Shown here: piece by piece, positions 2,782 to 64,000 of the stretch | Numbering within the stretch: position 1 is the first letter of the stretch | Layout of the letters: each line of letters begins with the position of its first letter | DNA from: an uncultured delta proteobacterium | GTDB lineage: Bacteria; Desulfobacterota; Desulfobaccia; Desulfobaccales; 0-14-0-80-60-11 | Direction: 5' to 3' | Assembly (NCBI GenBank): GCA_963808395.1 | Contig: CAWEFJ010000006.1 | Coordinates: forward strand, 38,845 to 102,844 | DNA: 64,000 nt | Position numbers and translations under genes: made by a program | Notes under the pieces: generated by a model | Told to the model about the DNA's origin: nothing | Databases searched by the model: none | What the model saw: the letters and a program-made list of their open reading frames with translations, nothing else

Positions 2782-4209
2782 TCAGAGGTAATTGATGCCG
2801 TGCTGTTTGACTTTCAGGTGCATGGTCTTGTAATCGATGGAAAGTATCCGGGCGGCCTTGGCCTTGTTGCCATGGGTTTGCTGCAAGGCCTGGATGAGGA
2901 CCTCCTTTTCCACCCGGTCCACGTTGCGGCGCACGATCTCCTTGAGGGAGAGGTCGCGCCAGGAGGTCTCCGGCGTCCGGGAAGGCAGGGATTGCGCCAG
3001 CGCCCCGGTCCCCTGGATATTAAGATGGCTCGGGGTGATGAGCTCCCGGGCCAGGAGCACCGCGCGCCGGATCACGGAGCGCAGCTGCCGGACGTTGCCC
3101 GGCCAAAGATAAGAAGACAGGACCTCCAGGGCGCCGCTGGAGAACCCTTTCACCTCCTTGCGGAGCTCGGCGTTGGTCAGGTCCAGAAACCGCCCGGCCA
3201 GGTAGGGAATGTCTTCCTGGCGGTCCCGGAGAGGCGGGAGGTTGATGCTGAATTCATTGAGGCGGTAGTACAGGTCCCGCCGAAAGGCGCCAGCCGCCAC
3301 CACCGCCTCCAGGTCCTGATTGGTGGCGGCCAGCAGCCGGATATCCACTTTCAAGGGGGTGTGGCCTCCCAGCCGCTGGATGGTCTTTTCCTGCAAGACC
3401 CGGAGCAGTTTGGCCTGGGAGCCCGAGGGCAGGTTGGAGATCTCATCCAAAAACAGGGTTCCTCCCCCGGCAATCTCCAATTTGCCTGCTTTCCTGGCGT
3501 CGGCGCCGGTGAAGGCCCCCTTTTCATAGCCGAACAGCTCGCTCTCCAACAAGGCCTCGGGGATGGCGCCGCAGTCCACCGCCACAAAGGGGCCGGCGGC
3601 CCGGGGGCTGTGCCGGTGGATGGCGGCGGCCACCAACTCCTTGCCGGAGCCGGTCTCGCCCAGGATGACCACGGAGAAATCGGAATGGGCCACCCGGTTG
3701 ACCTCGGTGATCAGCCGGGCGACGGCATCGCTGGGGCCCATGGACTCCCGGAGGCTGCCACCGCTATTGCTATCCGCTCCGCCCCCCCCCATGCCCTTGC
3801 GGCCCTGCCGCTCATCCAGGGCCCGGTGCAGCAGGCGGATGACCTCCCGGTGCTGGAAGGGCTTGGCAAGATAATCGTGGGCCCCGGCCCGCATGGCCGC
3901 CACTGCCTGGTTGACCCCGGCATAAGCGGTGATCATGATGACCGGCAGGTCCGGGTCCATCTCCCTGGCCTTCTTTAACAGCTCCAGGCCGTCCCGGTCG
4001 GGCAGATGCACATCCGCCAACATCACCTCGGCTCCCCGGAGGCGGAGCAATTCCAGGGCCGAGTGGCCGTCCGCCGCGGTCAGCGGAGTGAACCCCTCCT
4101 TGCGAACCAGGCGCGCCAGGATCTCCCGGAGATCCTGGTCGTCATCGACAATCAATACCCCTGAGCCCCTGGGCATTTCGCTACCTCCATGAGATAATGA
4201 GCTGCGCAT
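2782..4209 (-). CDS. NtrC-family sigma-54-dependent response regulator (REC + AAA+ + Fis-type HTH)
   Basis: Receiver domain (VLIVDDDQDLREIL...ADVHLPDRDG). Sigma-54 interaction core (GETGSGKELVA, EKGAFTGA, LFLDEISNL). C-terminal HTH (GNKAKAARILSIDYKTMHLKVKQ). An alternative start lies at 4176 (MPRGSG). Confidence 0.92.
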   Translation of the reverse strand: MRSSLSHGGSEMPRGSGVLIVDDDQDLREILARLVRKEGFTPLTAADGHSALELLRLRGAEVMLADVHLPDRDGLELLKKAREMDPDLPVIMITAYAGVNQAVAAMRAGAHDYLAKPFQHREVIRLLHRALDERQGRKGMGGGGADSNSGGSLRESMGPSDAVARLITEVNRVAHSDFSVVILGETGSGKELVAAAIHRHSPRAAGPFVAVDCGAIPEALLESELFGYEKGAFTGADARKAGKLEIAGGGTLFLDEISNLPSGSQAKLLRVLQEKTIQRLGGHTPLKVDIRLLAATNQDLEAVVAAGAFRRDLYYRLNEFSINLPPLRDRQEDIPYLAGRFLDLTNAELRKEVKGFSSGALEVLSSYLWPGNVRQLRSVIRRAVLLARELITPSHLNIQGTGALAQSLPSRTPETSWRDLSLKEIVRRNVDRVEKEVLIQALQQTHGNKAKAARILSIDYKTMHLKVKQHGINYL

Positions 4210-6450: not shown

Positions 6451-6508
6451 CAAGGTCAAAGTTCAAGGTTCAAAGTTCAAGGTTCAAAGTCTGGAACTCG
6501 AACTCAAC
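6451..6508. repeat. tandem heptamer array (CAAAGTT/CAAGGTT units, then GAACTCG/AACTCAA)
   Basis: caaggtcaaagttcaaggttcaaagttcaaggttcaaagtctggaactcgaactcaac, located between the two carboxylase genes. Confidence 0.9.
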
Positions 6509-14370: not shown

Positions 14371-14443
14371 AGTTTCGAGTTCAAAGTTCAAAGTTCAAAG
14401 TTCAAAGTTCAAAGTCAAAGTCAAAGTCAAAGTCAAAGTTCGG
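14371..14443. repeat. tandem array: five AGTTCAA heptamers then four AGTCAA hexamers
   Basis: agtttcg(agttcaa)x5(agtcaa)x4agttcgg, lying immediately upstream of the nrdJ start on the opposite strand. Confidence 0.95.
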
Positions 14444-14602: not shown

Positions 14603-17349
14603 ATGGCGTCCGCGATCAGCAATCCGCAGGTCCTGAGTGCCGAGGAAGTTCTAAAATTGCTGGGGAGCAGGCCCGGCGGCCTGAGCCAGGCGGAGGCTGA
14701 GGAGCGCCTGCGCCTTAACGGCCCCAATCTCCTGGCGCCGGTCAAACAGAGTTCTCCTCCTGGCTGATTCTGCTGCGGCAATTCTTCAATCTTCTCATCA
14801 TTATCCTCCTGGCTGCCAGCGTCATCTCCTTTCTGCTGGGAGAGAACCTGGACGCCTGGCTCATCCTGGCGATTATTCTGGCATGCGTGGTTTTGGGGTT
14901 CATCCAGGAATACCGGGCCGAACAGGCGGCCGCGGCCTTGCGGCGGCTGGCGGCGCCGGAGGCCACGGTGGTGCGGGAGGGGGAACGAGGTCGCGTTGCC
15001 GGCCCGGGAAGTGGTGCCTGGCGACGTGTTGGCGCTGCGCCAGGGAGATATGGTGGCCGCCGACGCGCCGCCTGTTGGCGCAGTTTAACCTGCAGGCGGA
15101 TGAATCCCTGCTTACCGGAGAGTCCGTGGGGGTGGACAAAGACCTGGCTCCCCTGGCAGCGGCGGATGCCGCCCTGGACGAGCAGCGCTGCATGGTGTTC
15201 GGAGGCACCGTGATCACTTACGGGCGGGGCCGGGCGGTGGTCACCGCCACCGGCATGGAGACCCAGTTCGGGAGCATCGCCCGTCTGCTGGCGGAAGTCC
15301 CCGAGGAGGCCACGCCCCTGGAGCAGCGCATGACCACGGTGGGGCGCCTCCTGAGCGTCATCTGCCTGGCGGCCGCGGTGGGCGCCGCCCTCCTGGGGGT
15401 GCTCCGGGGCCACGCCTGGCTGGAGATGCTCATCTGGGGCATTACCCTGGCGGTGGCCGCGGTGCCGGAGTCATTGCCGGCGGTGGTCACCGGGGCCCTG
15501 GCCATCGGCACCACCCGCATGGCCCGGCGCCACGCCATCGTCAAGCGCCTGCCGGCAGTGGAAACCATGGGCTGCACCACGGTGATTTGCACCGACAAGA
15601 CCGGCACCCTCACCCGAAACGAGATGACCGCCAGGCGCCTCTTTCTGGACGGCCGGGAAATCGAGGTGACCGGGTCGGGATATGAACCCCTGGGGAAATT
15701 TCGGGAGGCGGGCCGGGATTTGCGGCCGGGCCAGGAGCCGCTTCTGGCCGTGGCGGCCCGCATCTCCCTGCTGTGCAACGACGCGGGCCTGGAAGTCCGG
15801 GACGGTCTCTGGACGGTGCGCGGCGATCCCACCGAAGGAGCGTTGCTGGCCCTGGCGCGGAAGGCGGTAGCCAATAGCCGGCAGGTGCTGGCCGCCTTTC
15901 CCCGGGTGGCGGAGATTCCCTTTTCCGCGGAAACCAAGAGGATGAGCACCTTCCACCAGGGGCCGGAGGGCTTTCTGCAGTGCCTCAAGGGGTCTCCCGA
16001 GGGCCTGCTGCATAATTCTTCCAGAGTTTTGACGGCGCAGGGGGAAAGGCCCGTCACCGAGGAGGACCGGCGGCTGATCCATCAAGAGGCGGGCCGCATG
16101 GCCCAGGACGCCCTGCGCGTCTTGGGGCTGGCTTACCGCCCTCTGAAAAGTCCGCCCCCAGGCGCACTCGAGTCCGAGGCCAAGGTTGAGGATCTGGTTT
16201 GGGTAGGTCTGGTGGGCCTGATGGACCCTCCCCGGCCCGAGGCCCGGAAGGCGGTAAGCCGGTGCCGTCGGGCCGGCATCCGGGTCATCATGGTCACCGG
16301 CGACCATCCGGACACCGCCGGGGCCATCGCCCGGGAGGTGGGGCTGATTCCGGAGGGGCAGGATTCAGGCGGTCCTTTCCGGGAAAGAGATTGACCAGCT
16401 AAGCGATGCGGAGCTTAAGGAGGCCCTGAAAAACATCCGGGTCTTCGCCCGGGTAAACTCGGGCCATAAACTGCGGCTGGTGGCGCTCCTCAAGGGCCAG
16501 GGGGAGGTGGTGGCCATGACCGGGGACGGGGTCAATGACGCCCCGGCCTTGAAACGGGCCGACATCGGGGTGGCCATGGGGCAGAGCGGCACCGCGGTGG
16601 CCAGGGAGGCCGCCGCCATGATCCTGGCGGATGACAACTTCGCCAGCCTGGTGGCCGCGGTGGAGGAAGGCCGCGCCATCTTCGACAACATCAAGAAGTA
16701 CCTGGTCTTTCTGCTGAGCAGCAACATCGCCGAGATCCTGGTGCTCAGCGGGGCCTTCTTGTTCGGCCTGCCCTTGCCTCTCGTCGCCTTGCAGATCCTT
16801 TGGGTCAATCTCACCACCGACGGACTGCCGGCCCTGGCCCTGGGGGTGGACCCCAAGGCCCCGGACATCATGAGACGCCCGCCGCGGCCGCCCCGGGAAG
16901 GAGTCTTCACCCCCACCGTGAATTTCCTGCTGGTGGTGATCGCCCTCTATCTCACCGCCCTCCTCATACCTCTGTTTGCCTATTATGTTTACTGGAATCC
17001 TAACGGCCTGGGCTCGCCGGAGCAGGTCGTGGTCCGGGCCCGGACCATGGTGTTCACCACCCTGGTGCTGGTGGAACTGGTGAATGCCTTCAACTGCCGC
17101 TCCGATTACCACTCCCTGTTCACCACGGGCCTCTTTCCCAACCGCTTTCTCAACCTCTCCGTGCTGCTGTCCTTGCTGATGATGGTGGCGGTGATCGAAT
17201 GGCCGCCCCTGGGCCGGCTGTTCCATACCACGCCCCTGGGGTGGCATGACTGGCTGCTGGCGTGCGCTCCTGAGCCTCAGTATCCTGCCGGTGGTGGAAG
17301 CGGCCAAGTGGTGGCTGCGGCTTGTTGGGAAGGCAAAAGGAAAAAGTAA
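14603..17349 (+). CDS. cation-transporting P-type ATPase (type II, Ca2+/Mg2+-like), at least 5 frame changes
   Basis: N-terminal cation-ATPase domain (LSAEEVLKLLGSRPGGLSQAEAEERLRLNGPNLLA). Also TGES (LLTGESVGV), the phosphorylation site ICTDKTGTLT, MVTGDHPDTA and AMTGDGVNDAPALKRADIGVAMG. The gene is split across ORFs 14567, 14887, 14883 and 16480. Confidence 0.9.
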
Positions 17350-17456
17350 AAAGGCAAAGAAAAGAATAAAAAGGACCTTTTTCCTTTTACCTTTTGCCTT
17401 TACTCAGGGGTGGCACAGGGTCCCCGCCTGGCGCACCGGCTGGAAGCCGGTGCCAC

Positions 17457-22786: not shown

Positions 22787-22806
22787 GGGCAGTTCACCAA
22801 ATTTTA

Positions 22807-22994
22807 GGTTCTAAAGAATAGGTGGCAGTGCCCACCCTAGATTTTCTTGTCTGCTGGACACGCTGAGCGCCGCGAAGCATCTCATATTTAGAGATGCTTC
22901 GGTCGCCTCCGGCTCCCTCAGAATGACAAGCAATAGCCTCGTATTATCTTGTCGCTTAAGTCTTATAGGGCGGCCTATGGCCGCCGACACGGCG
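22807..22994. repeat. ~190-bp structured dispersed element, copy 1
   Basis: Collinear with 28999-29191 at roughly 80 percent identity by eye. Shared blocks: GGTTCTAA(A/G)GAAT.GGTGG(G)CAGTGCCCACC, CGAAGCATCTC...GAGAT.CTTCGGTCGCCT.CGGCTCCCTCAGAATGA, TCTTATAGGGCGGCCT.TGGCCGCCGAC. It contains a perfect 11-bp hairpin, CGAAGCATCTC/GAGATGCTTCG. Confidence 0.85.
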
Positions 22995-23271
22995 GGCCCG
23001 CTCCGCCCCTCCGTCACTTCTGCACTTATTCGGGTCGACTTCCACGCGAACAGACATTAAACCTCACCTCATTGGCTTTAGTAACGGGCCGCTCTTCCGA
23101 ATGGCCGCGTTATAGCGAGCCGCCGTCAACCGGTTTGTTTTATGTAGGGGCGGACCCGCGTGTCCGCCCTATGGTGGGCGCAAACATGGGCTGCCTGCCT
23201 ACAAAAGATTCTTCAACTTTTGATGGTAGCTTGGGAACTATCCGGGAGGAGCTGGCTGTCCTTACCGCGGG

Positions 23272-27472: not shown

Positions 27473-28786
27473 CTAAGAGGCCTCCAGGAATTGCACCGCT
27501 CCCAGTTCCTGCAAGGCCTCGGCGTAGCGGGCCGCCGGCCCCATCACCAGGATGACCAGGGACTCGGGGTGCAGATGCTCCTGCGCCGATTGGGCCGCGG
27601 TCTTCAGGGAAACGCCGCGAATTTGCTCACAATAACCCTGCAGGTAATCCCGGCCCAGGTCGAAGAGATCGATGGACAGCAGTTGCCGGCTGATGCCCCC
27701 GGGGTTCTCCAGGCCCAGGGGGAAATGCCCCACGTAATAACTCTGGGCCTCCTCCAGTTCCTGGGAAGTGAGCCCCTGTTGCCTTAAGTCCCGGACCACC
27801 CGGCCGATTTCCTGCACCACCGCGGCGGTGTTGGCCGCCGGGGTGAAGGTGGAGATGATAAAGGGGCCCGGGGCCCGGCGAAAGGAGAAGCTGCTGCGGA
27901 TGCCGTAGGTGAAACCCAGATCCGAGCGGATGCGGGTCATGAGGCGGGAGGAGAAGCCGCCCTCCCCCAGGATGTAGTTCACCAGCTTCAGGGGGAAGTA
28001 ATCCGGGTGGGAGCGGGGCAGGCCCAGGTGCCCAACCCGAATCTCACTTTGGGTCAAATCGGGGCGGTCCAGGAGATAGATGCCGGGGGAGCAGACCTTA
28101 TCAGGCGGCGCAGTGAAGGCCGGGCTGGCGGGGCCGCCGCCGCGAAAGTTCCCCCAGAGGCGCCCGGCTTCCCGAACCAGGGTGGCGAACTCCACCATGC
28201 CCACCGCCACCAGGGTGGCGGTCCCGGGAGTGAACTCCCGCTGATAAAAGCCTTGCAGATCAGCGAGGGAGAGGGCGTCCAGGGTCCGCAGGTCGCCCGG
28301 CGCCGGGTGGCCATAGGGCGAATCGCCGAAGAACAGGCGCAGGTAACGCAGACTGGCCATCTCCCGGGGGTCCTGCAACTGTTGCACCAGCTCGGCGCGG
28401 CGGCGCTCCCGGATCAGCAGGAACTCATCCTCCGGAAAGGCCGGGGTCTGGACGATCTCCGCCAGGGTGGCCAGATGTTCCTCAAAATCCTCGGCCAGGC
28501 CCTCGAGAGAGATCAGGGTGGCGTCAAAGCCGGAGCGGCCCGAGAGGGACGCTCCCCGGGCTTCAATATCCTGGGCCAGTTGCAACTGGCTGCGGCGGGA
28601 AGATCCCAGGGTGAGGAGCTCCGCGGCCCAGTCGGCCACCCCGGCCTTGCCCGGCGGGTCGGTCTCGGAGCCCCGCTTGGCCATGAAGGTGAGACTCAGC
28701 CAGGGCGCCCGGGCGTACTCCACCCCCAGCAGGTTCATGCCATTGGGCAGGGTAGCCTGGTGGATTTCGGGGATATAGTTTGGCAT
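27473..28786 (-). CDS. M16 (pitrilysin) family peptidase-like subunit lacking an obvious HxxEH motif
   Basis: 437-aa two-lobe M16 architecture (LPNGMNLLGVEYARAPWLSLTFMAKRGSETDP...). It lies downstream of the HxxEH-containing M16 gene. Confidence 0.8.
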   Translation of the reverse strand: MPNYIPEIHQATLPNGMNLLGVEYARAPWLSLTFMAKRGSETDPPGKAGVADWAAELLTLGSSRRSQLQLAQDIEARGASLSGRSGFDATLISLEGLAEDFEEHLATLAEIVQTPAFPEDEFLLIRERRRAELVQQLQDPREMASLRYLRLFFGDSPYGHPAPGDLRTLDALSLADLQGFYQREFTPGTATLVAVGMVEFATLVREAGRLWGNFRGGGPASPAFTAPPDKVCSPGIYLLDRPDLTQSEIRVGHLGLPRSHPDYFPLKLVNYILGEGGFSSRLMTRIRSDLGFTYGIRSSFSFRRAPGPFIISTFTPAANTAAVVQEIGRVVRDLRQQGLTSQELEEAQSYYVGHFPLGLENPGGISRQLLSIDLFDLGRDYLQGYCEQIRGVSLKTAAQSAQEHLHPESLVILVMGPAARYAEALQELGAVQFLEAS

Positions 28787-28800
28787 ATTAAGGTCCTTTT

Positions 28801-28833
28801 AGTGAGCAGTGAGCAGTAAGCAGTGAGCAGTGA
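28801..28833. repeat. tandem heptamer array (AGTGAGC/GTGAGCA) about 4.7 units
   Basis: agtgagcagtgagcagtaagcagtgagcagtga. It is the reverse complement of the array at 29221-29248. Confidence 0.95.
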
Positions 28834-28998
28834 ACCCCTGGTGGATTTCGGGGATATAATTTGCCATCTTAACTCCTGTTTTCGGTTTTCAGGCGGTTTC
28901 GTTGCAAAAAAATTAATAATGGCAGCGGCATCCTTTATAGGCGCCTTAGCAACCTCAACAATCAAAGCGATTTAAATTCAATAAGGTTCATTTAAAGA

Positions 28999-29191
28999 GG
29001 TTCTAAGGAATCGGTGGGCAGTGCCCACCCCAGTTTCTAGTCTTCATCTCATGCTGCGCGAGGCGAAGCATCTCCATTCAGAGATTCTTCGGTCGCCTGC
29101 GGCTCCCTCAGAATGAGAAGAAATGACCTGGTATCATCTTGGTGCTTTAATAAACAGTCTTATAGGGCGGCCTGTGGCCGCCGACCCGGCG
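28999..29191. repeat. ~190-bp structured dispersed element, copy 2
   Basis: See copy 1 (22807-22994). This copy lies between the two inverted heptamer arrays. Confidence 0.85.
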
Positions 29192-29220
29192 CGGCCAGAC
29201 CCCCCTGGTTTGGCTTTTTC

Positions 29221-29248
29221 TGCTCACTGCTCACTGCTCACTGCTCAC
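29221..29248. repeat. tandem heptamer array (TGCTCAC)x4; contains the stop codon of the upstream M16 gene
   Basis: tgctcactgctcactgctcactgctcac. On the minus strand the gene ends ...CCG TTG GCG TGA GCA GTG AGC. Confidence 0.95.
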
Positions 29249-30522
29249 GCCAACGGCCCTAAAGAGGCGCTCTCTTCCGGGGAGACCGGCTGCAGGGTGA
29301 CCACGGTGCGGTTGTCGGGGCGCAGGTAGGTCTGGGCCACGCGCCGGATGTCCGCCTCGCTGACCGCCTCGAAGGAGGCCAGGATGCGGTTGGCCCGGGA
29401 GGCGTCGCCGGTCTTCAGGTGAAAGAGCCCCGCCAGCAGGCCCCGGAAGAAGTTGTGAGCCAGGCTTCTGACCATTTGGGCCCGCAGCAATTTCTTGGCC
29501 CGGGCCAACTCCAGGGATTCCACTCCGTCCCGGCGCAGACGCTCCAGGGACTGCCAGACCTCCTCTTCCAGGGCCGCCAGGGGGGAGCCCGGAGCAGCCA
29601 CCGCCACCACCACCAGGAGGTCGGGATCCTGGGCCGAAAAGGGCAGGGGGGCCAGCTCCACTTCCAGGGAGGCGGCCTTGCCGGGGCGCACAAACTCCTG
29701 GTGAAAGCGGGAGGCCTTGCCGCCGGTGAGGATGGTGGCCAAGAGCTGCAAGGGATAATAGTCCGGATGCCCCATGTCCACCACATGGTAGCCCGCCAGC
29801 AGGGCCTCCACCTGGGAGACCTTCTTGACCACGGCGCGGCGTTCGCCCCGCTGGGGCGGCTCGGTGAAGGGGTGGGGCGCCGGCGCCCCGGGGTTGGGGA
29901 TAGCCCCGAAGTGGCGGGCCACCAGGTCCCGGGCCTGGCCGGGGTCGGCGTCCCCGGCGATGACCACCGTCAGCTTGCCCGGGTGGTAGTGGCTGCGGTA
30001 GTAGGCCAGGCAATCCTTCAGGCTCAGGTGGCGCAAATCCTGGTCCCAGCCGATCACCGGCCACTGGTAGGGGTGCTGGGTGTAGGCGGTGGCGAACAGC
30101 TCCTCCTCCACCAGGCCCAGGGGACTGTCCACGCTCCGCAGTTTGCGCTCGCTGATCACTACCTGCAACTCCGGGGCAAAGGTGTCGTTATCCAGCTTCA
30201 GGTGCAACAGGCGATCGGCCTCCAGCTCGAGCCCCAACTCCAGGTGCTCGGAGGGCAGGTTTTCGAAGTATGAGGTGTGATCCCGGGTGGTGAAGGCGTT
30301 GATCTCGCCGCCCCTGGACTGGAGGATGCGGGAGAACTCTTCGGGTCCCCGGGTCTCGGTGCCCCGAAACATCAGGTGCTCGAAGAGGTGGGAGATGCCG
30401 GTGATTCCCGGCAATTCGTTCCGGGAGCCCACCTGATAATGGAGTTGCAGGGAGACGATGGGGAGACTCCGGTCGGGCAAGACCAGGAGGGTGAGGCCAT
30501 TATCCAGGGTGTCCTGCACCAT
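29245..30522 (-). CDS. M16 (pitrilysin) family zinc peptidase, active-site subunit
   Basis: HxxEH motif in GISHLFEHLMFRGT. Start taken at MVQDTLDNGLTLLVLP (30522). The listed ORF extends upstream through a palindromic repeat and is probably too long. Confidence 0.85.
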   Translation of the reverse strand: MVQDTLDNGLTLLVLPDRSLPIVSLQLHYQVGSRNELPGITGISHLFEHLMFRGTETRGPEEFSRILQSRGGEINAFTTRDHTSYFENLPSEHLELGLELEADRLLHLKLDNDTFAPELQVVISERKLRSVDSPLGLVEEELFATAYTQHPYQWPVIGWDQDLRHLSLKDCLAYYRSHYHPGKLTVVIAGDADPGQARDLVARHFGAIPNPGAPAPHPFTEPPQRGERRAVVKKVSQVEALLAGYHVVDMGHPDYYPLQLLATILTGGKASRFHQEFVRPGKAASLEVELAPLPFSAQDPDLLVVVAVAAPGSPLAALEEEVWQSLERLRRDGVESLELARAKKLLRAQMVRSLAHNFFRGLLAGLFHLKTGDASRANRILASFEAVSEADIRRVAQTYLRPDNRTVVTLQPVSPEESASLGPLA

Positions 30523-30657
30523 TTCGATTCCCGGCTGCCAGGCCGCCGGCGCGAACTTGGGGGATGGGGTCACGGGTTCCTCCTGCCGATTTTGCGCTTC
30601 CCGCGCACCGCGGGGGAGGCGCTTGGATTGATATCGTGTTCTAAAATCTGGTTTCCA

Positions 30658-30692
30658 AATCTGGTTCCCAAGTTTAACTTGGGAACCAGATT
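30658..30692. repeat. perfect palindrome family, copy 1 (17+1+17)
   Basis: AATCTGGTTCCCAAGTT-T-AACTTGGGAACCAGATT, preceded by a degenerate half-site (30644-30657). Confidence 0.95.
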
Positions 30693-30724
30693 TGACCAGA
30701 TTGGAGAGATCCGCAAGATCCCTC

Positions 30725-31697
30725 TCAGGGAACCGGGCGAGGGGGTGGATAGCCGCTCCAGCGGCGCAGCAGGTCCTCATCCACTTCCATGGTTATGGGC
30801 GTCATTTGGGCGATGGGAATGCTCTTGGGGGACTCGCCCCGGAGGACCCGCCGGGCCAGGGCGGCGGTCTCCGCCCCCAGGCGGCGGTAGTCCAGGGCCA
30901 GCCACAATAATGCCCCCCGGTGCGATCCTTCGGGATAGCCGCTCACCACCATGACCTTGAGGCGGCGGCCCCAGTCCAGCAGCAAGGGGGCGTAGCGGGC
31001 GGCGCTGGCCGCGGGGGGGAGATAGATCACCCGGGCGCCCCGGGCCAGGAGGCGTTCCAGTTGGGGGCGATCCGTGGCCGCGGCGCGGCTCTCCTCGATC
31101 AAGGGTTTGATCCCCAACCCGGGAGCTAATTGGCCAAATTCCCGGGCCAGGTCCGCGGCCACCCCGTCGGTGGGATCGTACAACAGACCCCAGGGGGCGC
31201 TCCCCAGAAGGCCGGAGCCCTCTTTCAAGGCTGCTTCCAGGGGGGGCGGCGAGGCGATGCCGGTGACGTTCTCCTGATGATTCTCGGGATGCGCCGCGCG
31301 CATAGGCGGCCTTGGTGAAATAGGGATTGGCCACCAGGGCGAAGACCACCGGGGTGCTCTTCTCCACCGGGGCCACCTGCAGCAAGGCCGGGGTGCCCAG
31401 GACCACCAGCAGCCGGGGCCGGAGCTGCCGCGCCCGCCCCAGTTGCTCCCGGATTTCCCGGTCGGAGTCCGGGGCGCACACCACTTTCAGGGGAAGGTCC
31501 TGCAGGTTTTCTTCCAGGCCCGCAATGGCCTGGCGCATCCGCGGCGAATCCGGGGAGCAAAAGATGACGACGGGAGCCTGCCGGGAAGGGCGGCAGCCCC
31601 AGGCGGCCAGCGCCAGGGCCAGGAAAAGGATCAGGAGCTTGCGGTTTGGGGGTTGCGGTTTTCGGTATTTGCATCTCTGGGTTGGAATGGCAAACAT
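30725..31697 (-). CDS. ABC transporter substrate-binding protein (ABC_sub_bind-type), one frame change near 31290
   Basis: Signal/lipobox-like N-terminus (LLILFLALALAAWGC). Pieces lie in ORFs 30777..31793 and 30725..31303 (PVVFALVANPYF...NVTGIASPPP...VIYLPP...MVVSGYPEG...LDYRRLGAETAALARRVLRGESPKSIPI). Confidence 0.7.
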
Positions 31698-31744
31698 TAT
31701 CGAACCGATACCGGTTAATCGGTGCGCCTCATCGCGGTGATCTG

Positions 31745-31777
31745 ATCTCGTTCCCAAGTTAAACTTGGGAACGAGAT
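31745..31777. repeat. perfect palindrome family, copy 2 (16+1+16) with a compensatory change
   Basis: ATCTCGTTCCCAAGTT-A-AACTTGGGAACGAGAT. G to C in the left arm is matched by C to G in the right arm, relative to copies 1 and 3. Confidence 0.95.
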
Positions 31778-31786
31778 TGCAAAGGG

Positions 31787-31828
31787 AACTCAAAACTCAA
31801 AACTCAAAACTCGAAACTCGAAACTTAA
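31787..31828. repeat. tandem heptamer array (AACTCAA x3, AACTCGA x2, AACTTAA)
   Basis: Starts about 10 nt downstream of the lepB stop. On the lepB strand the units read GTTTCGA/GTTTTGA. Confidence 0.95.
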
Positions 31829-31836
31829 ATCGCCTC

Positions 31837-34986: not shown

Positions 34987-35161
34987 GGGGGGGTAATCCC
35001 GGCCCCTAAAAGGCGGACGCAGTTCATGTAGAACCGCCGCCCCCGGCGGTTCTAGCCTTTATGCAGGCGCCGCCGGGGGCGGCGGCGCTACATATTCCCC
35101 CCCTGCCATCCATCCCCGCCCCAACCAGGGATAATCGTCTAATTCCCTAACCAGACCCTGG

Positions 35162-35202
35162 TCCGATCTGGTTCCCAAGTTAAACTTGGGAACCAGATCG
35201 GA
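35162..35202. repeat. perfect palindrome family, copy 3 (20+1+20)
   Basis: TCCGATCTGGTTCCCAAGTT-A-AACTTGGGAACCAGATCGGA, about 70 nt upstream of the RNase II/R start. Confidence 0.95.
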
Positions 35203-57782: not shown

Positions 57783-58773
57783 CTACGGCTGATGTTTTTC
57801 CTCATGGGGAGGCGGAGGAGTTTTCCCAGGAGTGCCACCGCTGGGAGCGGGGGCTTTGGGATGAGTTACCGCCGCGGGGTGACCACCGGGACCTGGAGTT
57901 CCAGGGGCATGATAGCCGGGAGCGGCAGTCCCGGAAGGATGATATCCGGGAGCGGTGGTTGCAGGGCCCCGATAGCCAGGGGTAGCTCCGGATGATATCC
58001 GGGACCGGCAGTTCCGGAAGGACTATATCCGGGACCGGCAGTCCCGGAAGGATGATATCCCGGAGCGGTGGTTGCAGGGCCGCGATAGCCCGGACCGGTG
58101 GTTCCTTGGGGATGATAGCCGGGACCGGCAGTTCCGGAAGGGCTATATCCGGGACCGGTGGTTCCTGGGCCATGGTAACCGGGGCCAGTAGTTCCTGGGC
58201 CGCCATAGCACCTGACCGGTTGTTCCTTGGCCGCGAGATCCGGGACCGGTAGCTCCCTGGCCATGATACCCGGAACCGGTGGTTCCCTGGCCATGATAGC
58301 CGGGACCGCTAACTCCTGGGGCACGGTTCCCCTGCCATCCTTGATTCCATCCTGCCCCCTGGCCGCGGTGGTACCGGTTATAGAAATTCTGGTCATAGAA
58401 GTGACCAACCTGGTGTCCGCGCCATATGAGGATACTGTCGCTCAAAATTACCCCAGTATTGAGGATGTCCCTGATACCATGAATTCCACCCCGGCGCATA
58501 CCAGTTTTCGGGTCTGACAATATAGACGGTAGGATAGGCGTAATACGGGGCAAATCCATATCTGGGGCCGAAAAAGTAGTACAGGATCCCGTTCAGAAAC
58601 CAATCACCTTTGTAATAGGTCCAGGGCGTATTGTTTCCCACCCACGGGGTCACGACAACCGGCTGGCCCGGGGGTGGGTAATAGCCCTGAGCGGCAGCAG
58701 GTCCGGACATCGCGCCGATCGCGCCTCCAGCCAGCAAAATTACCAGTACCAAAAAAGCAATCGACCTTTTCAT
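57783..58773 (-). CDS. secreted Tyr/Trp-rich protein with a Gly/Pro/Tyr/His decapeptide-repeat tail (at least 3 frame changes inside the repeats)
   Basis: Signal peptide MKRSIAFLVLVILLAGGAIGAMSGPAAAQG. Aromatic-rich domain (WTYYKGDWFLNGILYYFFGPRYGFAPYYAYP). About 600 nt of near-periodic 30-nt DNA repeats follow, encoding GPGYHGQGTTG-like units across ORFs 58143..58559 and 57866..58408. A third frame ends HPKAPAPSGGTPGKTPPPPHEEKHQP at TAG 57783. Confidence 0.6.
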
Positions 58774-63294: not shown

Positions 63295-63440
63295 TTGCCT
63301 CCTCCCATCCTGCTCTTAATCGAGCCTGAAATCCCACTAGTGAAAAATTTAGCACCTTTTTCCGCCTGGCCGCTAAATCCGCGGGGCGTGGGGTAAAGCC
63401 GGCGGCTGCATGAACCGCACCGCCACTGTCCCTGGCCCCT

Positions 63441-63490
63441 CACTGCTCACTGCTTACTGCTCACTGCTCACTGCACTGCTTACTGCTCAC
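63441..63490. repeat. tandem heptamer array (CACTGCT/TACTGCT, about 7 units); contains the purB stop codon
   Basis: cactgctcactgcttactgctcactgctcactgcactgcttactgctcac. The minus strand reads ...GGG GAG TGA GCA GTA AGC. Confidence 0.95.
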
Positions 63491-64000
63491 TCCCCAAACA
63501 CCCGGGCGAAGATGGCATCGACGTGGCGCAGGGAGCGCCCCAGGTCGAAGATGGCCGCCAGTTCCGCCGGGGTCAGATGCCGGGAGATCTCCGCATCCTT
63601 TTGCACCAGCGAGGGAAACTCGCCTCCCTGCTCCCAGACTTGCATGGCCGGGCGCTGCACCAAGCGGTAAGCCGCATCCCGGCTCAGGCCTTTGCCAATC
63701 AGCGCCAGCAACAGGCCCTGGGAGAAGATCAGGCCGTGGGTGAGGTTGAGGTTCTTGGTCATATTTTTCGGGTAAACCGTGAGATTCTTCAGCAAGCGGG
63801 TGAGGCGGGCCAGCATGAAGTCCAGGAGCACGGTGCTGTCCGGGGCAATGAGCCGCTCCACCGAGGAGTGGCTGATGTCCCGCTCGTGCCACAGGGGCAC
63901 GTCTTCCAGGGCCGCCAGGGCATTGGCCCGGAGCAGCCGGGCCAGGCCGCAGAGGTTCTCGGAGAGAACCGGGTTGCGCTTGTGGGGCATGGCGGAAGAG
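63487..64000 (-). CDS. purB: adenylosuccinate lyase, C-terminal part (gene continues beyond the window end)
   Basis: [46 protein letters not shown]... matches the fumarate-lyase family signature region and the PurB C-terminus. Confidence 0.9.

Follow-up and report, generated by a model that had tools for sequence, protein, structure and literature searches.

Inverted heptanucleotide arrays bracket a repeat-mosaic spacer with a tandem gene leader between two M16 peptidase genes of a Desulfobaccales genome

We analyzed a 64,000-nucleotide (nt) stretch of DNA, here called the window (C6:38845-102844), from a 3.2-Mb, 33-contig, 60.7% G+C, 69%-complete metagenome-assembled genome (MAG) of the Desulfobaccales, and within it the 458-nt spacer that separates two co-oriented M16 peptidase genes on the minus strand. 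As an earlier note on this DNA had claimed, both flanking genes are of the M16 type, each product carrying PF00675 and PF05193. The relatives of the M16 gene all come from Desulfobaccales or "delta proteobacterium" MAGs. Among the orthologous loci of the downstream gene (L001-L017), the nearest is L001, with ~97% nt identity along its full length; the upstream gene, too, is nearest to this locus, at ~97% over its full length, so that both flanks have the background called A-type below. Two inverted arrays of heptanucleotide (heptamer) repeats lie at the ends of the spacer, and between them are dispersed palindromic modules and a second copy of the start of the downstream gene. Our overall reading, which we consider probable though well short of certain, is that of a repeat-mosaic spacer held in a lineage-wide heptamer bracket, in which the duplicated gene start is a recombination joint with one type of leader (form B) standing ahead of another (form A), and the bracket would form a helix of the kind cut by RNase III.

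Analysis with Tandem Repeats Finder (TRF) gave 4.1 copies of CTGCTCA with 100% matches at 29220-29248 (the 5' arm) and 4.7 copies of AGTGAGC with 92% matches and one G>A variant at 28801-28833 (the 3' arm). The arms are inverted, with 386 nt between them. The TGA stop of the upstream M16 gene (29247-29245) sits within the first heptamer of the 5' arm, and its context, GCG TGA GCAG, is kept in relatives; this arm has the "after-stop" orientation of the ACTGCTC unit family. The 3' arm has the "before-start" orientation and is followed on the coding strand by TAAAAGGACCTTAAT and then by the ATG of the downstream M16 gene at 28786; its single variant, C>T in this sense, would give a G.U pair on the sense RNA. 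Its sequence also aligns collinearly with A-type leaders, those of L001, L006, L007, and L008. The predicted arm duplex has an energy of -63.7 kcal/mol, compared with -20.7 kcal/mol for shuffled arms (z -11.7), and in the genome-wide run over array pairs the values by strand were -61.0 kcal/mol for minus and -55.9 kcal/mol for plus. When the 501-nt RNA was folded, a 29-bp stem appeared in the minimum free energy (MFE) structure and in the centroid structure alike (z -5.8); the plus strand folds equally well, as expected of any inverted repeat. These results bear out the earlier note, which had described complementary heptamer arrays able to pair as a ~28-nt stem around ~390 nt that include the second copy of a ~190-bp element: TRF and an inverted-repeat search agree on the arrays and their sequences, the arms can pair, and the element lies inside the loop. 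The coordinates of these and other features are collected in Table 1. Five more arrays occur in the window, at 6451-6490, 14378-14441, 17330-17401, 31787-31829, and 63439-63491. That at 17330-17401 is a short inverted pair, AAGGAAA/ACCTTTT, and that at 63439-63491, of the GTGAGCA family, is 100% complementary to the 3' arm over 33 nt.

Table 1. Features of the M16-M16 spacer, its flanking genes, and related loci elsewhere in the genome
Feature	Coordinates	Strand	Basis or remark
Upstream M16 peptidase gene	29245..30780	(-)	ORF list; Pfam PF00675 + PF05193
5' arm, mRNA strand (GTGAGCA)4, perfect	29220..29248	(-)	TRF; inverted repeats I2/I14
Composite "190-nt element" (REP1 + E + REP2)	28998..29196	(.)	BLAST of spacer vs genome
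REP2 hairpin GGCGGCCTGTGGCCGCC	29149-29186		Motif GGCGGCCAYAGGCCGCC then CTATAA, 65 strand hits
Palindromic E module, TCATTCTGAGGGAGC...GAAGAATCTC	29049-29127		~37 hits
REP1 hairpin GGTGGGCAGTGCCCACC, GTAG head	29001-29030		165 strand hits, CTAC tail
AT-rich B-type leader, degenerate (CCGAAAA)n run, AGGAG SD	28873..28997	(-)	Alignments A1, A3
Outer copy of gene start, TTAAG ATG GCA AAT TAT ATC CCC GAA ATC CAC CAG G, B-type allele	28837..28872	(-)	D19
22-codon remnant ORF MANYIPEIHQGFTAHCLLLTAH* through 3' arm	28799..28867	(-)	Translation
3' arm, mRNA strand CTGCTCA CTGCTTA CTGCTCA CTGCTCA (28833-28801)	28801..28833	(-)	TRF
Inner copy, real downstream M16 start, AAAGGA SD, A-type (ATG CCA AAC)	28756..28791	(-)	D19
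Downstream M16 peptidase gene	27473..28786	(-)	ORF list; Pfam PF00675 + PF05193; orthologues L001-L017
PF05635 gene	C10:245214-245531, bracket C10:245131-245593		GTTCCCG/GAACTGG; 403-nt loop
PF05635 gene	C6:189331-189570, bracket C6:189152-189662 (outside window)		TTTGAGT/TCGAAAC; 445-nt loop
RayT ORF	L039:1330-1857 (G000 C31, about 220.2-220.7 kb)		NF047646
Abbreviations: ORF, open reading frame; REP, repetitive extragenic palindromic element; SD, Shine-Dalgarno sequence.

Heptamer arrays are a feature of the whole genome. Perfect arrays of at least three copies number 82 at period 7, compared with 4, 3, and 3 at periods 5, 8, and 9, an excess of more than 20-fold. TRF reported 241 heptamer arrays, 203 of them intergenic, which fall into about ten main unit families (ACTGCTC, AAAACCG, AAAGTTC, AAAACAG, ACTGGCT, AAACTCG, ACTACTG, and others). 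The characters of heptanucleotide tandem repeats, namely arrays of at least three copies, an intergenic excess of period 7, and copy-number variation between relatives, are thus all found here. The (GTGAGCA)n arrays are abundant in 14/14 congeners and also in two further genera belonging to the family; in the sister family they are rare or absent.

Each unit family has one fixed polarity relative to genes. GAGCAGT follows stops in 13/13 cases and ACTGCTC precedes starts in 6/6; the counts were 8/8 and 4/4 for AGCCAGT/ACTGGCT and likewise 8/8 and 4/4 for AAAGTTC/GAACTTT. The rule holds also in arrays that have no partner. Many stop codons lie in an array or a few bases from one, and many starts, by rough start calls, lie 0-7 nt after an array with little or no SD (e.g., ...gctcactgctcact ATG and ...ctcataac ATG). 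We considered a stop-codon logic for this polarity, by which the after-stop arm would offer stops in all frames; it fits GTGAGCA, AGCCAGT, and CAGTAGT and fails for CGGTTTT, CTGTTTT, and AGTTCAA, and was rejected as a general rule.

Neighboring arrays at most 600 nt apart form 51 pairs, 32 of which have an inverted duplex of -25 kcal/mol or better. These strong pairs have loops of 10 to 445 nt, and 14 of them have a gene end no more than 30 nt from each arm. Among the neighboring pairs, no same-family pair was found in direct orientation, and no homology was found among the loops of same-family pairs. Since these loops are unrelated, the pairs are not copies of one mobile hairpin. Both full genes for PF05635 (23S rRNA intervening-sequence protein) in the genome lie inside inverted heptamer brackets; in the search, each of the two matches has one in-frame stop.

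We compared the M16-M16 spacer of 13 species, 14 loci when that of the window is counted. The orthologous spacers are hypervariable, with lengths of 94-474 nt and greatly differing content, and most of them keep heptamer arrays beside the stop and/or before the SD. A significant heptamer duplex between a stop arm and a start arm was found at 7/14 loci. Other unit families build it in L004 (GGTTTTC/GAAAACC) and in L010 (GGGACCA/TGGTCCC), and at an eighth locus, L011, the pairing involves REP-type hairpins in place of heptamer arrays. The stop-proximal array has one copy in L001 and L002, five in L003, and four in the window, with unit variants in L006-L009. Two of the relatives hold other sequence in this spacer, an AT-rich insert of ~400 nt with an open frame at L003:3520-3990 and an ORF of ~33 codons with a CxxC motif (MQENRVSETKSYCNKCQKETTF...) at L014:3640-3800.

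What the arms enclose in the window had been described in the earlier note as a structured element. The repeat itself is real, in that 28998-29196 matches 22806-22998 with 80% identity over 202 nt; the single structured element gave way to three dispersed palindromic modules. When the spacer was searched by BLAST against the genome, each module had its own dispersed copies (about 80 for REP1 and about 30-80 for the interior modules), and the three-module composite was present at about six loci. Because the modules are dispersed independently, the interior of the spacer is a mosaic resembling bacterial interspersed mosaic elements (BIMEs), not one structured RNA gene. Rfam searches (the whole window at gathering thresholds, and 28600-29400 in E-value mode) gave no family and only chance-level matches. 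A gene for the REP-associated tyrosine transposase RayT is also present (193.5 bits on NF047646, where the cut-off is 80). Within the same 3.3-kb locus, REP1 occurs ~1.1 kb from this ORF as a perfect copy and ~0.5 kb from it with three mismatches; several more copies lie within the same 7-kb RayT region. REP1 hence has the marks of a REP/RayT system, being a many-copy, GTAG-headed palindrome in a genome where a RayT gene has REP1 nearby. Repeats of other kinds occur elsewhere in the window. A 41-nt near-perfect palindrome, TCTGGTTCCCAAGTTTAACTTGGGAACCAGA, has three copies (30652-30699, 31738-31778, and 35158-35198), one of which has matching changes in both arms. At 57877-58334 there are long periodic repeats of 30 nt, also readable as 60, 90, or 113 nt (GATAGCCGGGACCGGTGGTTCC...), probably in a repetitive glycine/proline-rich coding region.

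The second copy of the gene start is a direct repeat (D19) of 28756-28791 at 28837-28872, 36 nt long and 92% identical, slightly longer than the 31 nt claimed in the earlier note. The other observations made there also stand: the copies flank the first array, the outer copy has the better SD (AGGAG), and a 22-codon ORF runs through the array and stops 12 nt before the real ATG. The copies are 81 nt apart and so are in frame; the TAA of the ORF is followed in the same frame by KDLN and then by the real M. With its AGGAG-N5-ATG start and 22 codons, the ORF has the SD, start, and end of a leader ORF. As for conservation, none of 40 relatives carries both copies.

The two copies differ in kind. 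Leaders of form A consist of (CTGCTCA)n, CTAAAAGGA, N5-7, and ATG, with AAAGGA as the SD and CCA as codon 2 in close relatives (more distant A-type loci have other codons there); they are found in L001, L006, L007, L008, L010, L011, and L014. Leaders of form B consist of REP1, an AT-rich stretch, (CCGAAAA)n, CAGGAGTTAAG, and ATG GCA/GCG and are found in L002, L004, and L015. The inner start in the window is identical to those of L001 and L007 and has CCA as codon 2, as in the close A-type relatives; the outer copy has the B-type GCA and matches the ATGGCA/ATGGCG starts of L002 and L004. The stretch 28873-28997 likewise aligns collinearly with the L002 and L004 leaders of the orthologous gene and is unique within this genome. 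Along the window, collinearity with form B extends from the E module past the ATG as far as CCACCAGG; from the array on, the collinearity is with form A. Relatives carry one form or the other, singly, and only here does form B with 11 codons stand ahead of form A. Consistently, when the tandem leader was used as a query, form-A genomes matched positions 52-141 only and form-B genomes positions 1-49 only. Since the two copies, each with the sequence upstream of it, align collinearly with different leader types, the duplication is a recombination joint of alternative leaders.

The alignments suggest that an A-type genome gained a B-type segment between its arms; as an alternative history, both leaders would be ancestral and retained here, each relative having lost one. 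Judged from the collinearity, a copy of the gene start came in with the inserted DNA, and the joint gave rise to the 22-codon ORF as a by-product. Considered alone, duplication and ORF make up the usual kind of scar that a rearrangement leaves. The earlier note had suggested a possible role as an upstream leader ORF or an RNA-stability structure; that the arrangement occurs in this genome alone speaks against an evolved function. A comparable internal duplication exists in L004, where the B cassette CCGAAAACCGAAAACAGGAATTAAGAT is repeated around the same composite: the cassette, CCGAAAACCGAAAACAGGA(A/G)TTAAGAT, stands at 3650-3700 and at 3960-4003 and flanks a composite of E, REP1, and leader. 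This independent second duplication indicates that leader-proximal rearrangement recurs at the M16 spacer.

The tandem could in principle be an assembly chimera of leader-A and leader-B strains that coexisted in the source metagenome. The genome is indeed a 33-contig, 69%-complete MAG, both leader types occur in closely related populations, and the junction is present in no other public contig: pattern scans of public genome and metagenome contig collections did not find it, and an exact-protein look-up for independent assemblies gave no match. However, at the join of CCACCAGG to GGTTCACTGC the haplotypes share no overlap of k-mer length, so that a graph assembler would need real reads to follow this path, and both flanks are otherwise consistently L001-like. 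We regard a chimera as quite improbable.

The earlier note had read the same duplication as the footprint of an array inserted with target duplication, and in a broader form this would be a mobile inverted-repeat element, similar to a miniature inverted-repeat transposable element (MITE) or to a REP doublet forming a hairpin (REPIN), that entered the spacer and duplicated the gene start as its target site. In keeping with such an event, a 450-nt segment has the arms as inverted repeats at either end, 36-nt direct repeats exist, and the genome has a RayT transposase. Yet the direct repeats surround one arm and not the whole element, their two copies come from two different allele types, the copy number of the arms varies, and the loops of same-family pairs lack homology. 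A scan for flanking duplications that covered the 120 nt to the left and to the right of every one of the 241 arrays found unique sequence duplicated at this one array; the other results were four arrays (three loci) with dispersed REP-type modules on both sides. To our knowledge, moreover, 36 nt is far above the usual lengths of target-site duplications. A MITE or insertion sequence with target-site duplication was therefore rejected, and we give very little credence to any mobile-element account. In the comparison with orthologous M16 pairs that the earlier note had proposed, the duplication was absent from the relatives searched (0/40), and most of the orthologous spacers had heptamer arrays. 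Orthologues with the duplication and no arrays, which would have spoken for an independent origin, were not seen.

If the bracket acts on RNA, the most likely course is the following. The M16 pair would be transcribed as a single mRNA, in which the arms may form the 29-bp helix predicted by folding; this would loop out the 386 nt and bring the upstream stop beside the downstream SD. A perfect helix of such length would be a substrate for RNase III, by analogy with the heptamer hairpin in the hmw 5' untranslated region (5'-UTR) and with rRNA intervening sequences. The bracket may in this way let the operon tolerate junk or cargo in the spacer. Ribosomes recruited by the strong outer SD would unwind the 3' arm and end translation over the real SD, and translation from the outer SD could couple that of the downstream gene. 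Generalized to the genome, this would amount to a punctuation system, in which arrays of fixed polarity pair into a stalk cleavable by RNase III that excises or insulates spacer cargo (REPs, intervening-sequence protein genes, leaders); in this general form we think the proposal unlikely.

Several observations weigh against an RNA-level bracket. The stem is absent from the three closest relatives, L001-L003 (just one GTGAGCA unit is present in L001 and in L002, and the 3' arm is missing in L003), and must hence be dispensable on short time scales. Within pairs, no correlation of arm lengths was detected (r = 0.19, p = 0.3). Counts of G.U versus A.C asymmetry in co-directional pairs, made by hand from the list of neighboring pairs with rough gene calls, favored sense in 5 and antisense in 13, which is not significant and gives no support. 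A search of this 69%-complete assembly gave no RNase III gene; one was found in 14/14 congeners. Co-transcription of the M16 pair is an assumption based on co-orientation and on the 94-97-nt spacers of L009-L011; a promoter scan found no sigma-70-like promoter in the spacer, and four terminator-like matches there are weak and all on the plus strand. The genome-wide positions of arrays relative to genes depend on gene calls from our own simple ORF scorer, which covered 73% of the genome. Finally, the remnant ORF is unique to this genome, which speaks against a maintained function for it.

Some of these points would be expected if the features were neutral by-products of slippage-prone microsatellites, of ectopic or inter-strain recombination, and of REP proliferation in a tolerant spacer, with no function at the RNA level. 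Arms that grow, shrink, and switch unit between close relatives, up to loss of the stem in L001-L003, would fit this account, as would uncorrelated arm lengths, the missing wobble bias on the sense strand, a duplication confined to one genome, and a spacer interior full of selfish REP-type modules. But neutral slippage leaves unexplained why some ten specific units recur at ~240 sites with unrelated loops, why each family keeps its polarity toward stop and start even in unpaired arrays, and why different unit families re-create the inverted pair at one orthologous spacer. We consider a wholly neutral origin conceivable but doubtful.

Heptamer repeats have reportedly been known since 1990, when Mazel and co-workers are said to have described them in cyanobacteria as short tandemly repeated repetitive (STRR) sequences. 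The units of STRR1-3, from heterocystous cyanobacteria, are CCCCAGT, TTGGTCA, and CAACAGT. The arrays studied here are not STRR in the strict sense: their units are GTGAGCA, CGGTTTT, AGTTCAA, AGCCAGT, and others, and the host belongs to the Desulfobaccales. In general form they resemble known bacterial heptamer repeats, in that arrays of 3-10 copies of 7-nt units are over-represented and intergenic, often lie directly upstream of starts or overlap the end of the upstream ORF, keep a fixed orientation relative to the downstream gene, and have no accepted function. They differ in the Desulfobacterota host, in the unit vocabulary, and in the co-occurrence of several families. The predominance of heptamers among long simple sequence repeats (SSRs) was noted in 2007, according to a passage of PMC4692102 that cites this work. 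TAACTGA repeats occur in Beggiatoaceae, Cyanobacteria, and Bacteroidetes, and those of the Beggiatoaceae are described just upstream of starts (MacGregor, 2015; PMC4679880). The starts that follow arrays without a recognizable SD in our genome recall those of the Beggiatoaceae; inverted pairing is the rule here, as opposed to a single inverted set in BOGUAY.

Convergent inverted pairs of GGGAATC heptamers are found in Xanthomonas, with 70-75 per genome (Rehm et al., 2015; PMC4692102). There, too, two close intergenic heptamer arrays on opposite strands could form a stem-loop or cruciform; the Xanthomonas units, however, are G-rich and form G-quadruplexes, whereas ours lack G-tracts, and our arms lie directly against stop and start codons. 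The closest experimental precedent for the predicted stem comes from Haemophilus influenzae hmw1A/hmw2A, in whose 5'-UTR a hairpin with a heptamer SSR is cleaved by RNase III (PMC12721329). The likeness lies in a transcribed heptamer array that supplies one side of a long RNA hairpin ahead of a gene, in a helix of a size suited to RNase III, and in the variable repeat number, the hairpin of the M16 spacer being a predicted one. The hmw hairpin has a G-rich region without repeats as its second arm and belongs to a single phase-variable virulence locus; in the M16 spacer both arms are arrays, the loop has 386 nt, the neighbors are housekeeping-type genes, and the pair is one of dozens in the genome.

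Two further systems share parts of the arrangement. Intervening sequences of 23S rRNA are excised by RNase III, and some carry an ORF for S23p, the intervening-sequence protein (IVP; PF05635). As in these, the ends of the insert would form a long stem around a variable, dispensable interior, and both full IVP genes of this genome lie inside heptamer brackets; the M16 locus, in contrast, is an mRNA spacer without an IVP gene, and its excision is putative. Enterobacterial (E. coli) REP/BIME mosaics are mobilized by RayT. The interior of the M16 spacer resembles them in its GTAG-headed palindromes, copy numbers of ~30-80, mosaics in operon spacers, and a RayT gene with REPs nearby; the heptamer arms differ, being tandem repeats of variable copy number and not REPs.

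We conclude that the locus is an example of the bacterial heptanucleotide repeats already described, and that inverted convergent pairs of such arrays were already known in Xanthomonas. Following the cyanobacterial repeats, such heptamers came to be described in Beggiatoaceae, Bacteroidetes, and Xanthomonas, still with no agreed function. To these the M16 locus adds a host related to sulfate reducers, a series of orthologous spacers whose inverted pair at one stop/start junction is rebuilt from different unit families, and a family-specific polarity rule that includes unpaired arrays. Together, the orthologous series and the polarity rule argue for a strand-specific role, probably at the RNA level. 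If the punctuation proposal were true, one strand of each unit family would follow stops and its complement would precede starts, operons would accommodate cargo in their spacers and exchange it, the tandem A/B leader would represent an intermediate caught during the swapping of leader cassettes between strains, and the remnant ORF would be a device that opens the stem for coupling. The hybrid leader itself shows that such spacers swap whole 5' regions between strains.

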